A program made the translations under genes and the position numbers. 64,000 nt of DNA from Promethearchaeia archaeon. GTDB taxonomy: Archaea > Asgardarchaeota > Lokiarchaeia > Sigyniarchaeales > SOKP01. The DNA is taken from the NCBI GenBank assembly GCA_029856145.1, contig JAHQWK010000001.1, forward strand, positions 1 to 64,000, read 5' to 3'. This document shows, one piece after another, positions 1-6,062 of this stretch (position 1 is the stretch's first letter; every line of letters starts with the position of its first letter). The notes under the pieces were generated by a model. That model worked only from the letters and a program-made list of their open reading frames with translations, made no database searches and was not told the DNA's origin.

Positions 1-161
1 GGTTTTTTTGTAAGCATTGAAGAAATTTCTTCAGTTAATTCATCTTCCTCTAATTTAAGTTCTTCGCAAATTTCATCTAAAAGTTCTTGTTTTATTTTTT
101 CTTTTATTTTCCTCTTAATTACATCTTTGATTGATTTATTCGCTAGATCATTATTTTCCAT
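1..161 (-). CDS. 5' part of a gene running off the window; next gene of the Ubl-E1-E2 operon (MENNDLANKSIKDVIKRKIKEKIKQELLDEICEELKLEEDEL...)
   Basis: ATG at 161 lies 7 nt after the E2 stop; open to the window edge; charged helical sequence. Confidence 0.7.
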   Translation of the reverse strand, partial: MENNDLANKSIKDVIKRKIKEKIKQELLDEICEELKLEEDELTEEISSMLTKK

Positions 162-168
162 GTAAAAA

Positions 169-696
169 TCACCATTTTTTATTTGCATACTTCTTAACAA
201 GGTTCTTTACTTTTTTCTCAAAAAACTTTTGATTTTTCATCATTTCTATCGCGGCTTTTTTGTTAAAAACATCTGTTGGATTTACATATTTACCACGTGT
301 ATTTAACATAGCAATTATTGCTTGAACGACAGTCACTGCTGTTTTTGAAGGACTCCATCCACCTTTTTTACCAACTAATGAGGGATCTACTAAAGCAAGA
401 CAAATATTTCTCTGTCCTTTATATTCTGATGGTTTTGGCCAGAAATTTGGATGCCAAATAGGAGTATGAAATCTTACAAAAGGAGGTTTTTTAGGGTATT
501 GACCAGGGAATTTCATTTCTAATCTAAAAAGACCACCTGCATAAACAGTACCTTTAGGACCTTTAAATGAGATTGCTAGATGATCAATACTTTTCCTTTT
601 TGGATTAAATGGTTTTAATTGAACAATACTACCTTCTGTAAGCATTTTTTTTAATCCTGCAAAATCTCGGGAAATACGACTACTTCTTATACTCAT
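169..696 (-). CDS. E2 ubiquitin-conjugating (UBC) enzyme
   Basis: GPKGTVYAGGLF, FPxxYPxxPP, WHPN motif, catalytic NICL, WSPS motif. Confidence 0.95.
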   Translation of the reverse strand: MSIRSSRISRDFAGLKKMLTEGSIVQLKPFNPKRKSIDHLAISFKGPKGTVYAGGLFRLEMKFPGQYPKKPPFVRFHTPIWHPNFWPKPSEYKGQRNICLALVDPSLVGKKGGWSPSKTAVTVVQAIIAMLNTRGKYVNPTDVFNKKAAIEMMKNQKFFEKKVKNLVKKYANKKW

Positions 697-792: not shown

Positions 793-2028
793 TTATTTTA
801 ATTTTAAGGTTACAAAAATTTCACCATCTTTAAACCCCGCCGCTGTCATAAGTTCGTAATTTCTTAATCCATTTTCAATTGGATTCTTTTCTAATTCAAC
901 TATCTTAACATCATTAAAATCCAGTAAAGTTAAAATTGGCTCAGAATCTGGATCTAGTTTAAATCCATTTTTCGTTAATATTTTAATTATGTTTAGACAA
1001 GGTGATTGGGCTCTCAATTTTATTGATACTCGGCGAACTTTTTTACTACATTGAGAACAATCTGGGTTTCTTGGTTTTTCGATATGATAGAATCTCATTG
1101 TAATTGCATTATAGATCACATAATTTCTTATAGGCTCACCTAATCCTTTATGACCTTTTCTCCAATGAAGTATTTTAATTGTTTCATGTGACTGTAAAGC
1201 TGAAATAACAGCATTTATAGTTATAATGCCAGGATCATGCCTATCAATAATTTTTACAATATCATCCTCAGTATATTCAGGCAAGAAATCATGTGTATTT
1301 ACTAGCTCATTTGTAACCTTTTGAATGAATTTAATATCATTTATGTCTTTTGGATTCGGATCACGATCAAACTTTTCTTTAAATGCCATATCTCCTTTAA
1401 AAACGCAATGAATCCTTTTTCGGGGCACTCCAACTACCGTACAGGCTGCCATCTCATCACTCTCACCTACTGGTAATGGATTACATTCATAACAAGCGTT
1501 TTTGTAAGGAAATATTGTATAAACATGGCCATGATAACCGGAAACTCCACCATCTACTAATGGTTTTTTAAATCTTATACATTGTGCATTTAAATTTAGA
1601 CGAGCATTCATCGAATCAAGTCCTCCAACAACAACATCAGCAGCTTGATATAATACAGGATTCAATCGCTCTAAAGAGGTATGATATCCCTTAACTATAA
1701 TATTGGGATTAATTTCTTTGAGCTTTCTCGCCGCCACAACTGCCTTAGGTTCTCCTATCTTTGCTCCAGTAAAAAGAACTTGACGGTTTAAATTAGAATG
1801 TTCAATAATATCTAAATCAATAAGATCTAAATGACCAACACCTAACATGGCAAAATTTTTAGCAATTTCACAACCTAAACCTCCAACACCAACTATCAAC
1901 ACCCTTGAGGCCTTTACTAATTTCTGAGACCAACCTTCCAAACGAAATTGGCGGTCATACAAGCCTCTCTCTTCCGCTGATAATTCTTTTGCAAAAAAAT
2001 CTGAATCCTTATCCAATATTATCACCAT
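793..2028 (-). CDS. E1 ubiquitin-like activating enzyme (eukaryote-type, Uba2/Uba3-like with catalytic Cys)
   Basis: YDRQ, GVGGLGCE, DLDIIEHSNLNRQ, CYEC and CSQC Zn ligands, ACTVVGVPRKRIHC catalytic motif, C-terminal extension. Confidence 0.95.
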   Translation of the reverse strand: MVIILDKDSDFFAKELSAEERGLYDRQFRLEGWSQKLVKASRVLIVGVGGLGCEIAKNFAMLGVGHLDLIDLDIIEHSNLNRQVLFTGAKIGEPKAVVAARKLKEINPNIIVKGYHTSLERLNPVLYQAADVVVGGLDSMNARLNLNAQCIRFKKPLVDGGVSGYHGHVYTIFPYKNACYECNPLPVGESDEMAACTVVGVPRKRIHCVFKGDMAFKEKFDRDPNPKDINDIKFIQKVTNELVNTHDFLPEYTEDDIVKIIDRHDPGIITINAVISALQSHETIKILHWRKGHKGLGEPIRNYVIYNAITMRFYHIEKPRNPDCSQCSKKVRRVSIKLRAQSPCLNIIKILTKNGFKLDPDSEPILTLLDFNDVKIVELEKNPIENGLRNYELMTAAGFKDGEIFVTLKLK

Positions 2029-2107: not shown

Positions 2108-2440
2108 CTACCCAGCTGTACTAGCTGGGATTAAAAGAATATCATCGCCATCATTTACATCATAGTCTCTTAAATTGCTATTTTCATCCATTGTAACTCC
2201 ACCTGAAGATAAATGAAAATCATTGGGATCCAAACCATACAAGTTACCTAAGGTTTGTTTAATATCACTTACTTGATTGCTGTCATTTACAGTTAATTTT
2301 TCTTTCTTTTCCCCAGGTCCAATAGTTGACATGAAATATAAAGTCAATTTCTTTCCTCCAGCAGGAGTTTTACCAGCAGGAGTTTTAGATTTTACTGGTT
2401 CTTCTCCTCCTAAATCCTCATCAAATTCATCAAAACTCAT
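2108..2440 (-). CDS. Ubiquitin-like modifier 1 with acidic N-terminal tail, ends ...LLIPASTAG
   Basis: Beta-grasp pattern (VSDIKQTL, LRDYDVNDGDDILLI), terminal Gly, directly upstream of E1 and E2. Confidence 0.9.
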   Translation of the reverse strand: MSFDEFDEDLGGEEPVKSKTPAGKTPAGGKKLTLYFMSTIGPGEKKEKLTVNDSNQVSDIKQTLGNLYGLDPNDFHLSSGGVTMDENSNLRDYDVNDGDDILLIPASTAG

Positions 2441-2707
2441 TCACATCACTTCCAATTTTTTTTTATTTTACAATCTGTAATTTTGTTATACTTAATAAAA
2501 TGGCATTAAAAAATTATTATAAAACCCTTTGGAATGATTTTGAAGTTTTTTCAGTTATAATCAAAACCAACAGTAAGAAAATTAGGATCCTCAAGAAATT
2601 ATATTATATATTGTATGAATGCCTATCAATATATATAAGACATAATATATTGGTTTAGAGAGAATACGTAATTATAAAAACAAAAAATTTCAACCCAATT
2701 TAAATAT

Positions 2708-3385
2708 ATGCTCATGAGTTCTCTGGATAAAGCGGAATCTATTGTTCTTGAATTAGTAGAAGAGTATTTGACGAAAAAAACCTTCTTCTCAATTAGAGAA
2801 ATTACATCATATATAAGTAATAGGGTGAGATACAATCCTAATATAAATGAGAATAGAATAGAGTTAATCTTAAAGGAATTAATTAAAAGAAGAATTATTA
2901 TTCCAGGAACTCGATTAATGAAAAATAATATTGTTGAACATCCAAAAAGAAATGAAATTTTTAATTATATTAAAAAGAATCCCTCAAATATTAATGAAAT
3001 AATGAGAGCTCTAAACATTGGTAGTAATCAAGCATTATGGCATTTATCATGTTTAGAAAAATTCAAATTCATTAGATCAAAACAACTCAACAATCATAAA
3101 TTTTTCTTCAAATTTGACTCTAACCCAAAACTTGATCCATTATACTTTTATTTGAAAAAAGAGATCGTTCAAAAAATAATTAATTTTATAAAAAACAAAA
3201 ATAAAGCATTTAAAATTACAGAAATAGCAACTGGTTTAAAAAAAAATCATAGTACTATTAAAAAATATTTAGATATTCTAAATGATCTGGAATTAATAAA
3301 CATTGAAAAAGAAAAAAATAGAAACATATTCAAATTAGATTTCGAGAAATATTCTAAGGCTAGAAAATCAATAGAAGGTGCATGA
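2708..3385 (+). CDS. Multi winged-helix (ArsR/HTH-like) protein, probable transcriptional regulator
   Basis: HPKRNEIFNYIKKNP..INEIMRAL..ALWHLSCLE and KITEIATGLKKNHSTIKKYLDIL wHTH repeats plus an N-terminal wHTH-like segment. Confidence 0.75.
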   Translation: MLMSSLDKAESIVLELVEEYLTKKTFFSIREITSYISNRVRYNPNINENRIELILKELIKRRIIIPGTRLMKNNIVEHPKRNEIFNYIKKNPSNINEIMRALNIGSNQALWHLSCLEKFKFIRSKQLNNHKFFFKFDSNPKLDPLYFYLKKEIVQKIINFIKNKNKAFKITEIATGLKKNHSTIKKYLDILNDLELINIEKEKNRNIFKLDFEKYSKARKSIEGA

Positions 3386-3470
3386 AATTGAAAACTCCAA
3401 TTTTATTCCAATCCCATTTAAATTTTAGATTATATATTTTAAATTCAGAAAATAATCTAATCAAAAAATC

Positions 3471-4265
3471 ATGAAAAAGAATTATAGAATTTTAATTGTT
3501 ATTGCTCTTTACACTGTTTGTATATTGTTCTATGTATTTTTTTTCCTATTTCGTATACAAAATACTCCCTTCTTTCTTTTTCTAACTATTGGTAGTGTTG
3601 CAGTATTATCAACTAGTACCATTTATACAGTTATACAGTCTAAAAGCAGTCAAGATAAGAGGTTAAAAGAAAAAAAATCTTTTGCAAAACCAAAGTCAAT
3701 TCAAACGGAAACTATCGATATGATTGAAGATTATATTGATGCAATGCCTTCAATAGAAGAATATATTGAATCAGATGAGTCATATAAGGATATGCCTATA
3801 ATTGATAAATACATTTTTTCAATCTTTAGTAAAGACGAATTAGATAAAATAGACCTTTTAGAGTTACCGAAAATGGATAAGATTTTATTCATCCGAGAAA
3901 TGCTATATTACGATCCAAATGAGAGAAAGGCGTTAATCGAAAATATGCTGAAAAACAAGGATAAAACTGATGGAGAAATAATTTATACACCACCTATGAA
4001 TCCCATTGAAATGGAAGACCAGATCCGTGTTTATGTAAGATCATTACTTGAGCCTGGTGAGAAAACGAAAATAATTATTGTTGATATGACTGATTTCATC
4101 GGGATAACTAAGGATAAAATTGCAGTATTATTTGATTATGATCTAGAAGATTTTCTCATATCTAGCGGAGGGATATTGCTAAAAGAGAACTTACTAATAA
4201 AAGATTATGATATCGATGATGATGATGAAATCGCTCTAATCCCCTCAAGAAAAGAAAAAAATTAA
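3471..4265 (+). CDS. Membrane protein: two N-terminal TM helices, acidic helical linker, C-terminal Ubl domain without terminal Gly
   Basis: Hydrophobic residues 7-55; C-terminal ~80 aa align with both Ubls (PGEK, DFxxSSGG, DYDxxDxDxIxLIP). Confidence 0.85.
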   Translation: MKKNYRILIVIALYTVCILFYVFFFLFRIQNTPFFLFLTIGSVAVLSTSTIYTVIQSKSSQDKRLKEKKSFAKPKSIQTETIDMIEDYIDAMPSIEEYIESDESYKDMPIIDKYIFSIFSKDELDKIDLLELPKMDKILFIREMLYYDPNERKALIENMLKNKDKTDGEIIYTPPMNPIEMEDQIRVYVRSLLEPGEKTKIIIVDMTDFIGITKDKIAVLFDYDLEDFLISSGGILLKENLLIKDYDIDDDDEIALIPSRKEKN

Positions 4266-4282: not shown

Positions 4283-4696
4283 TTAACCAGCTATACTTGC
4301 TGGAATTAAAAGTATGTCATCTCCGTCAGAAACATTATAATAGGTTAATGAGTTAGTTTCATCCATAGTTACACCACCAGATGATAAGTAAAAGTCAGCA
4401 GGATCTAAACCAAATAAATTGGCTATAGTTTCTTTTATATCTCCAACAAGGTTCCCATCATTAATAGTTAATTTTTGTTTTTTCTCACCTGGACCGATAG
4501 TAGACATAAAAAATACCGAAATCTTCTTCCCCCCAGTAACAACCTTTGTAGTAGGAGTTTTAGATTCAACTTCATCCTCAGGAATCTTTGCTAAAGTTTC
4601 TTCTATTCCATCTTCATATTTCTCTTCAAATTCTTCATCTAAATCTTCCAAATCTTCATCAAATTCTTGTTCATTAAACTCATCATCAAAACCCAT
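4283..4696 (-). CDS. Ubiquitin-like modifier 2 with long acidic N-terminal tail, ends ...LLIPASIAG
   Basis: Close paralog of 2108..2440 (FMSTIGPGEKK, LSSGGVTMDE, DGDDILLIPAS). Confidence 0.9.
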   Translation of the reverse strand: MGFDDEFNEQEFDEDLEDLDEEFEEKYEDGIEETLAKIPEDEVESKTPTTKVVTGGKKISVFFMSTIGPGEKKQKLTINDGNLVGDIKETIANLFGLDPADFYLSSGGVTMDETNSLTYYNVSDGDDILLIPASIAG

Positions 4697-4904: not shown

Positions 4905-6062
4905 ATGAATGATAAGCCTATTCCCAAGTATCAAATTCGAGAAAAAACTCCAGATGAAGAACTAGACACAATTCCAGAAAAAAAATTACTGAAAAAAATA
5001 AAAAAAGAAAGAATTAAGTTAGATAAAGAAAAAAGCGAATGGGAAAAAGTTATTAATCAAATTGAGGATTACAAAGAAAATATCGAAGACCTTGAAAAGA
5101 AAAGGAAAGAAAAAGAACTTAAAATTAAATTTCTTCTAGAACAACGAAATAACTTGAAAGAGGAGCTAGAGAGAACGAAAAATCAAATAGAGCAACAAAA
5201 AAATGAATTAGATGCTAAAGAACGGCGATTTAGAGAAAAAATTAAAAGTAAGAATGAAGAATTAAATCAAAAAAATACTGAATTAGAGAGGTTTCAAGAA
5301 AAATTAGATAAATTAAGAGAAGATATTGCTACTCAAAAAAAGAATTTAGATTGGGAAAAAGAAAGAACGGAAAAACGAATAAAGGAAATTAAAACGAAAA
5401 TTCCCGGAATGGAAAGAAGAGAAAATGCCTTAGAAAGAACTATTAATGATTTAGAAAATAATTTAATGGATTTAAGAAATGAAATTAAATATTTAACTAA
5501 AGAAAGGGATAATCTAAATAGGGAAATTAATAACTTAAGGAGAGAGATAACTGACGAAAAAAATCGAATTTCTGATGAAAAACAAAAACTTAAAGAAGAA
5601 AGAGAAAAAACGCGTTATAAAAAGCAAGATTTAGATCTTAGAACTCGTGAACTCGATAAGAAAAGAACAGATCTAAAAAAGTATAGATATAAAGCAGAAA
5701 AGGATGTAAATAATTTAGAAAAAAGAAGACGACAACAAGAAGCGAGATTTAAAGAATTAAAAAGAAAAGTTCCTGCTGCAGAGAAGAAGTTTCACTCCTT
5801 AAATAACAAAATTCCGAATTTAGAGGAAAAATTTAGAAAATTGAATAATGAATATAGACAATTAGAAAAAGAAAAAACAAACTTAGAAAGGGAAAAAAGT
5901 ACTATTAAACGTGAAAGAGAAAAACTAGAAAAGGATAAACAAAGATTTCTAAATGAAAAAAGAGAATTTGAAAGAGAACTAAGAAGGATTAAATCTAAAA
6001 CTCCTTCAATTAAAACAAAGACTCCTTCACATATTAAAACGAAAACTCCCTCAAAATATTAA
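4905..6062 (+). CDS. Long coiled-coil protein with C-terminal KTPS repeats
   Basis: ~330 aa of K/E/R/L heptad-rich sequence; tail IKSKTPSIKTKTPSHIKTKTPSKY. Confidence 0.85.
   Translation: MNDKPIPKYQIREKTPDEELDTIPEKKLLKKIKKERIKLDKEKSEWEKVINQIEDYKENIEDLEKKRKEKELKIKFLLEQRNNLKEELERTKNQIEQQKNELDAKERRFREKIKSKNEELNQKNTELERFQEKLDKLREDIATQKKNLDWEKERTEKRIKEIKTKIPGMERRENALERTINDLENNLMDLRNEIKYLTKERDNLNREINNLRREITDEKNRISDEKQKLKEEREKTRYKKQDLDLRTRELDKKRTDLKKYRYKAEKDVNNLEKRRRQQEARFKELKRKVPAAEKKFHSLNNKIPNLEEKFRKLNNEYRQLEKEKTNLEREKSTIKREREKLEKDKQRFLNEKREFERELRRIKSKTPSIKTKTPSHIKTKTPSKY

Follow-up and report, generated by a model that had tools for sequence, protein, structure and literature searches.

We found that TM-Ubl, a gene lying in a 64,000-nucleotide stretch of DNA (the window), encodes a membrane protein in which two transmembrane (TM) helices are followed by a middle domain predicted to bind the product of the adjacent winged-helix (wHTH) gene, and by a ubiquitin-like (Ubl) domain that is non-conjugatable. 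The locus is real and conserved, and its regulation is built from an undescribed module. We propose that TM-Ubl is an anti-activator at the membrane, part of a feedback loop controlling how strongly the Ubl system is expressed, a reading that we place slightly above even odds (about 0.52); its core, which some of the other readings share, is that TM-Ubl binds the regulator of the Ubl regulon, and this we regard as probable. A fuller version, in which the tethered, dead-end Ubl would read the free-Ubl pool or the pathway capacity and release a transcription factor for the Ubl regulon, is held tentatively, at a little under even odds; the locus would then be a Lokiarchaeial ubiquitin-homeostasis circuit that arose by swapping the ectodomain of an undescribed surface-receptor/wHTH signalling module, found across the lineage, for an internal Ubl sensor. 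The features of the locus are these:

3..200, minus strand: JAMM protease gene, 5′ end, cut by the contig start
169..696, minus strand: E2 (UQ_con), with HPN at 82 and a single Cys99
793..2028, minus strand: E1 (ThiF family), with GxGxxG at 47 and Cys at ~196
2108..2440, minus strand: Ubl1, a free modifier ending in ASTAG, first gene of the operator-bearing operon
2529..2549, minus strand: operator-like site ahead of the Ubl1-E1-E2-JAMM operon; the TATA-like box comes next, at ~2524-2517
2714..3385 (alternative start 2708), plus strand: triple winged-helix protein with ArsR/HVO_0163-like HTHs, the predicted tail partner and candidate regulator
3391..3411, plus strand: operator-like site ahead of TM-Ubl, 59 bp from the ATG; the TATA-like box comes next, at 3417-3423
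3471..4265, plus strand: TM-Ubl gene, 264 aa (two TM helices, tail domain predicted to bind the wHTH protein, non-conjugatable Ubl)
3489..3548, plus strand: TM helix 1 (~residues 7-26), signal-anchor-like by hydropathy, model and charge
3570..3635, plus strand: TM helix 2 (~residues 34-55), small-residue-rich, with unusually high conservation (0.95) over residues 41-50
3696..3971, plus strand: middle helical domain (residues 76-167), a cytoplasmic tail module of Lokiarchaeial surface proteins and predicted triple-wHTH binder
4020..4244, plus strand: ubiquitin-like beta-grasp domain (residues 184-258), matched by sequence, Pfam and structure
4245..4262, plus strand: basic tail SRKEKN in place of ASxAG, with no Gly at the G76 position
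4283..4696, minus strand: Ubl2, ending in ASIAG and without an upstream operator; occupies the ancestral position across from the coiled-coil gene
4905..6062, plus strand: coiled-coil protein, the ancestral divergent neighbour of the Ubl operon

The initial annotation had described two N-terminal TM helices, and topology prediction agrees: hydropathy is maximal over residues 7-25 (2.85) and 34-52 (1.73), and helices span residues 3-26 and 32-59 in an AlphaFold2 model. Since the K/R-rich flanks carry charges of +3 ahead of TM1 and +6 past TM2 and the loop between the helices is short, the protein is predicted to be N-in/C-in, with its remainder in the cytoplasm. Hydropathy, charge bias and the model thus predict a membrane anchor bearing a cytoplasmic non-conjugatable UBL, as in proteins of the HERP/TMUB1 type. 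TM-Ubl was matched in 35 of 36 same-genus genomes, mostly at full length, and has orthologs in 3 further genera, 4 genera in total within one Lokiarchaeia family (candidate orthologs in ~85 of the 127 family genomes searched), so it is not unique to this genome and the conservation within Lokiarchaeia, which the initial annotation had suggested checking, is borne out. No full-length TM-Ubl was found outside this family in the genomes searched, and homologs with a source name are mostly labelled Promethearchaeota or Lokiarchaeota. The dN/dS ratio is 0.10-0.20 across the TM, middle and Ubl domains; on this and on the conservation in genus and family, we rejected a pseudogene or assembly artefact. 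One gapped scaffold (L009; G022 C1:529393-533178) carries TM-Ubl with its operator and without adjacent wHTH or Ubl genes, an arrangement that is either a rearrangement or an assembly artefact.

The C-terminal domain of TM-Ubl is a beta-grasp of the ubiquitin type. Residues 173-260 are 33-34% identical to Ubl1 and Ubl2 (pairwise E 6e-16) and match Pfam PF00240 (E 4e-5), and a model of the domain retrieved ubiquitin-family structures both in Foldseek (E ~1e-5; rmsd 1.1-3 Å) and in VIA (Z 12-14; ISG15 at Z 13.9 and rmsd 1.6 Å over 77 residues); Pfam, Foldseek and VIA therefore agree with the earlier claim of kinship to the free Ubls. That the replacement of ASxAG by SRKEKN leaves the protein non-conjugatable had also been claimed, and it is upheld by the orthologs: Gly at the ubiquitin G76 register, which characterizes a conjugatable (type I) Ubl modifier, is present in 95 of 95 free Ubls examined and in 0 of 50 TM-Ubl orthologs. 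The ortholog tails are basic (R260 is kept in 92% and K261, which bears on the Lys acceptor site suggested in the initial annotation, in 84%), and one has a terminal Gly, shifted one residue past the G76 register. Many free Ubls carry 1-6 residues beyond the Gly (e.g. L052, L061-L066, L069), which implies maturation by JAMM and marks that Gly as the conjugation site.

The β1-β2 loop, the S231-G233-G234 strand and I257-P258 of TM-Ubl are identical to those of the free Ubls, and a decoy or binding role for the domain is plausible from its sequence. The surface positions that differ between TM-Ubl and free Ubl (L192/T, L229/H, A255/L) suggest that its partner may be another than that of the free Ubl. 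On the tree the domain forms a separate long branch outside Ubl1 and Ubl2, a placement made tentative by the few columns and the long branch, and it is nearer to soluble Ubl fusions (39% identity), which together argue against Ubl2 having been copied and inverted recently. The suggestion in the initial annotation that Ubl2 was locally duplicated and inverted thus finds no support in the tree, in the soluble-fusion identity or in synteny, and on tree and synteny we rejected it. The same Ubl, its AG end retained, also occurs in soluble fusions with an N-terminal CPKC domain or a longin-like domain, and tandem di- and tri-Ubl proteins were also seen (L031:5332-6156, L036:4621-5454, L040:5557-6237, P0142, P0157).

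The most constrained part of TM-Ubl is its middle domain (dN/dS 0.105), which was absent from the initial annotation. This domain recurs C-terminally, sometimes in tandem, in many single-pass proteins of 270-2000 aa that consist of a signal peptide, an ectodomain (WD40, beta-helix, LamG-like or unknown) and a TM helix, and TM2 of TM-Ubl aligns with the TM helix of these surface proteins. There are up to 20 tail matches per Lokiarchaeial genome and weak ones elsewhere in the phylum. A co-oriented triple-wHTH homolog adjoins the tail gene in 30 of the 32 assessable loci, which were chosen by the tail alone, with ectodomains that are beta-helix, LamG-like or unknown; about 10 of the paired loci form one orthologous group and the remainder differ in architecture, and since most are related the counts are not independent and amount to some ten distinct architectures. 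No significant match to a known family was found in Pfam, PDB sequences, Foldseek, VIA (best Z 4.8) or Atlas features, and in an Atlas shape search every cluster above TM 0.5 was from Promethearchaeota; such blanks do not prove a new fold, and the stand-alone model is moderate (pLDDT 74). The tail shows no homology to the wHTH protein, and no tail-wHTH fusion proteins, longer fused forms included, were found in our search, which is weak evidence. We infer that TM-Ubl is a surface receptor whose ectodomain was cut to a loop and to which a Ubl was added on the inside. Free-standing tail domains of 74-98 aa without a TM helix also occur (L094:1274-1498, which is G000 C13:148273-148497, and L133:8739-9002) and are either soluble anti-regulators or fragments. 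Weak tail-profile matches (E ~1e-6) lie at the cytoplasmic ends of surface proteins of 1350-1570 aa at L123-L125, in small genomes (1.3-1.4 Mb) of another family.

The candidate partner of the tail, considered also as an ESCRT-II (Vps22/25/36) protein, matched only HTH profiles of the ArsR/HrcA/HVO_0163 type in the profile searches made; its match to the SdpR autorepressor model was weak (E 1e-8, below the cut-off). The source genome holds only 5 members of this wHTH family. Three stand alone, each beside a membrane protein: TM-Ubl in one case, a protein that weakly matches the tail in another and one without a match in the third. The other two are fused to TM segments (C9:557937 and C19:70593), lacking the N-terminal wHTH and keeping the WHL helix. 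Complex prediction for the tail and the wHTH protein gave 0.79 (best of 3 controls, 0.00), passing a mark that admits 58 of 80 solved complexes and 2 of 110 mismatched pairs, a calibration that holds only roughly here because our own alignments were used; contacts agreed between runs at 93% or more and partner pLDDT was at least 83. The predicted interface is centred on F116 of the tail, which is invariant among TM-Ubl orthologs. In the model the F116 segment packs on the N-terminal wHTH (F26-S28, I64-G67), the very domain that is missing from the TM-fused members and that makes most of the predicted tail contacts. The tail in addition lies over four residues, S106, N107, L110 and W111, in the recognition helix that belongs to the second wHTH. 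The predicted interface is more conserved than the rest (0.75 versus 0.66; 0.63 versus 0.56). The complex prediction supports, at the level of a model, binding of the wHTH protein by the tail domain. As the WHL motif is kept in the TM-fused members, its helix probably serves DNA binding, and with that helix covered by the tail a bound wHTH protein would be off DNA.

A conserved 21-bp block in the gap between Ubl1 and the wHTH gene (AAAACTTCAAAATCATTCCAA; 2529-2549, minus strand) is followed 4-5 bp on by the Ubl1 TATA box. A matrix built from Ubl1 upstream DNA alone picked out another site, at 3391-3411, within the 85 bp that separate TM-Ubl from the wHTH gene. Its distance to a TATA box is the same, and these are the only two matches in the window (0.01 expected). 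The site scores at least 15 ahead of 45 of 50 TM-Ubl orthologs, its distance from the ATG being 55-60 bp in most; among 2473 control genes, 3 reach that score. The pattern is present in 31 of 36 genus genomes (reversed-pattern controls, 0); in one ortholog (L026) the site has decayed. Across the genus the site precedes Ubl1 (orphan copies too), TM-Ubl, two small ORFs and, in part of the genomes, an RtcB-containing operon, and weaker variants precede some other tail-bearing genes. It is absent ahead of Ubl2, of the wHTH gene (best score 4.5) and of the Ubl genes of cassette-less genomes, the last being weak evidence as those genomes are more distant. The genus with a separate cassette has the site at Ubl1, weakly at TM-Ubl and not at the enzyme operon, and the oldest output therefore seems to be the supply of free Ubl. 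Co-occurrence suggests that the wHTH protein reads this operator.

The site is asymmetric, with TTC/TCC repeats 10 bp apart. Between it and the TATA box the sequence deviates from VRAAA, the BRE consensus (A at -3 in 3%), and its last bases extend to -6 of the TATA box. The layout, a conserved site immediately ahead of a weak BRE and a TATA box, is of the TFB-RF1 type, and the site also touches the BRE edge. Promoters of tRNA genes, tried as a control for BRE strength, were too noisy to be informative, and a sigma-70 promoter scan, irrelevant to archaea, gave chance level. A third operator site (L091:1124-1762; G000 C22:114123-114761) lies before two small paralogous ORFs of 71 and 78 aa that have no Pfam match and are conserved together with the site in three other genomes. 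At L095, L097 and L099 the operator stands ahead of a protein of 243 aa, whose C-terminal part weakly matches an HTH, and of the RNA ligase RtcB, and this arrangement in three genomes hints at a stress regulon. A second conserved block surrounds the TATA box of the wHTH gene (2591-2640 of the window) and is possibly a separate control site.

In the mechanism that we favour, free regulator would bind the operator beside the weak BRE and activate Ubl1, the enzymes and its own inhibitor, and the induction of TM-Ubl by the regulator would give negative feedback. The tail would grip the N-terminal wHTH, cover the recognition helix of the second wHTH and hold the regulator at the membrane, away from DNA. 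The least certain step is the input, which would be the tethered dead-end Ubl: TM-Ubl might rival free Ubl for a pathway partner (E1, JAMM, a membrane RING E3 or a Ubl-reading unfoldase), and a shortage of free Ubl or removal of TM-Ubl would then release the regulator. Only by reasoning from these features do we infer what the Ubl senses and the sign of the regulator, activator or repressor; two points speak for activation, namely the weak BRE position, as for TFB-RF1 (PMC5937170), and the lack of a site ahead of the wHTH gene itself.

Alternatively, the wHTH protein could be a repressor seated at the edge of the BRE, and TM-Ubl, as its anti-repressor, would normally undergo turnover, its Ubl and Lys tail serving as a degron for the operon’s membrane RING E3 and the proteasome; under overload TM-Ubl would accumulate, sequester the repressor and induce itself together with the Ubl genes, in the manner of SdpI and SdpR (PMC2910880). 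Repression fits a site that reaches to -6 ahead of the TATA box and so touches the BRE edge, and it accords with the multi-TM RING-like protein in the operon (in relatives and on C28), with the retention of R260 and K261 (92% and 84% of orthologs) and with the match, weak as it is, to the SdpR autorepressor model. The BRE position is nevertheless weak at nearly all sites, which suits an activator (PMC5937170), and the wHTH gene lacks its own site, unlike the genes of autorepressors; we consider a repressor unlikely. Another alternative is a pure adaptor or decoy function at the membrane, with TM-Ubl recruiting or inhibiting E1/E2 or a Ubl-binding ATPase as part of an ERAD-like pathway, the middle domain being a relic or spacer and the gene merely co-regulated. 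In its favour are the Ubl fold, in which the loop and strand residues are those of the free Ubls, the operator common to TM-Ubl and the operon, and the membrane RING-like E3 encoded there, but this role, which can coexist with a regulatory one, leaves the tail unexplained. No region is under stronger constraint than the middle domain, which accompanies the wHTH gene and passes the complex prediction, and one genus has the cassette away from E1/E2/JAMM. We consider it improbable as a full account. The initial annotation had likewise proposed a membrane receptor, decoy or adaptor, of which the anchor, the Ubl fold and the loss of the Gly stand, but the protein is not simply an ERAD-type adaptor: conservation is highest in the tail module, whose pairing with a wHTH gene shows in neighbourhood and predicted complex, and the operator is common with the Ubl operon. 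We give least credence to a split one-component TM regulator, in which the wHTH protein would stay on TM-Ubl and act on DNA from the membrane, as the TM-wHTH fusions of the source genome must, with the Ubl or TM2 controlling dimerisation. Those fusions (C9:557937, C19:70593) and the highly conserved, small-residue-rich TM2 are in keeping with it, but the modelled tail covers S106, N107, L110 and W111 of the recognition helix and should hinder DNA binding, and the search for longer fused forms yielded none (weak evidence).

HERP and TMUB1 are integral-membrane UBL proteins and ERAD adaptors in which the UBL is N-terminal to the membrane segments; HERP is stress-inducible, and eukaryotic membrane UBLs stand beside a membrane RING E3 pathway. 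TM-Ubl resembles them in its membrane-anchored, non-conjugatable ubiquitin-fold domain, but its order is TM-TM-tail-UBL where theirs has the UBL before the TM segments, and since the tree derives its domain from the Lokiarchaeial AG-ending Ubl family its origin would be independent of HERP/TMUB1. To our knowledge, no eukaryotic membrane UBL protein has this tail domain or holds a transcription factor. Eukaryotic supply of ubiquitin and proteasome is under transcriptional control through UBI4 induction, Rpn4 and Nrf1, the last of which is membrane-held until release; these circuits are like that proposed for TM-Ubl by analogy of logic only, with no homology.

In Bacillus subtilis, the membrane protein SdpI sequesters the adjacently encoded ArsR-like wHTH regulator SdpR and belongs to its regulon (PMC2910880), and we propose the same of TM-Ubl on the predicted complex. 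Synteny pairs TM-Ubl with a wHTH gene, and the common site places it inside the candidate regulon. Unlike SdpI, TM-Ubl is not polytopic and has 2 TM helices and a soluble tail, its partner is a triple-wHTH protein, its input would be a cytoplasmic Ubl domain and not an external toxin, and the sign is probably activation. Nor does it belong by homology to the SdpI family (3-12 TM), as ubiquitin is its sole Pfam match and NCBIfam gave no match. TFB-RF1 (PF1088) of Pyrococcus furiosus is an activator whose site lies just upstream of a weak BRE and TATA box and whose regulon includes the adjoining membrane-protein gene PF1089, a layout like that of TM-Ubl (PMC5937170). The TFB-RF1 site is palindromic whereas the TM-Ubl/Ubl1 site is asymmetric, and binding of PF1089 to the regulator is not reported (PMC5937170) whereas tail-wHTH binding is predicted here.

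The Ub-E1-E2-RING-JAMM operons of Asgard archaea and Caldiarchaeum (PMC9192718) have the same gene set as the regulated operon (Ubl, E1, E2, JAMM, RING-like); a keyword search of that paper gave no membrane-tethered Ubl, and position 44 is Ser here where a hydrophobic residue would stand. No description of TM-Ubl, the tail module or the regulon was found in the literature searched, which leaves out most subscription papers. For the study of how Asgard ubiquitin systems are regulated and used, the locus offers a candidate regulator, a DNA site, a small regulon and a predicted inhibitor. If the Ubl is the input, this would be prokaryotic feedback control of ubiquitin supply that evolved independently of the eukaryotic circuits. 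A wider two-gene Lokiarchaeial signalling family is also indicated, made of a conserved-tail surface protein and a triple-wHTH factor, for which we found no Pfam family or paper.

Three genera share the gene order JAMM, E2, E1 and Ubl1 (leftward), wHTH and TM-Ubl (rightward), Ubl2 (leftward) and coiled-coil (rightward). As the initial annotation had pointed out, TM-Ubl is tail-to-tail with Ubl2, across a gap of 17 bp. Outside those genera the coiled-coil gene adjoins a Ubl>E1>E2>JAMM operon without wHTH or TM-Ubl. In a fourth genus, a block of Ubl1, wHTH and TM-Ubl lies apart from an intact ancestral operon, so that insertion better explains the adjacency of TM-Ubl and Ubl2; judging from gene order, the simplest history would be insertion of the block between the ancestral Ubl (now Ubl2) and E1. 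AG-ending Ubls are the sole PF00240 matches in the genome. A multi-TM RING-like gene continues the operon in relatives and in a second copy on C28, where it follows a JAMM paralog with an intact JAMM motif; in this second Ubl1-E1-E2-JAMM-multi-TM RING-like operon (G000 C28:74965-79286), Ubl1, E1 and E2 have 90-97% amino acid identity. An orphan Ubl1 that has kept its operator precedes a bactofilin-like gene (C26:60437-60886). Contamination as the source of the extra Ubl1, E1 and E2 copies is unlikely, since relatives have them too, among them one whose genome is a single contig. Other E1/E2 loci lie at G000 C31:19317-22730 and C32:40280-42260, one of them with a JAMM-like neighbour.
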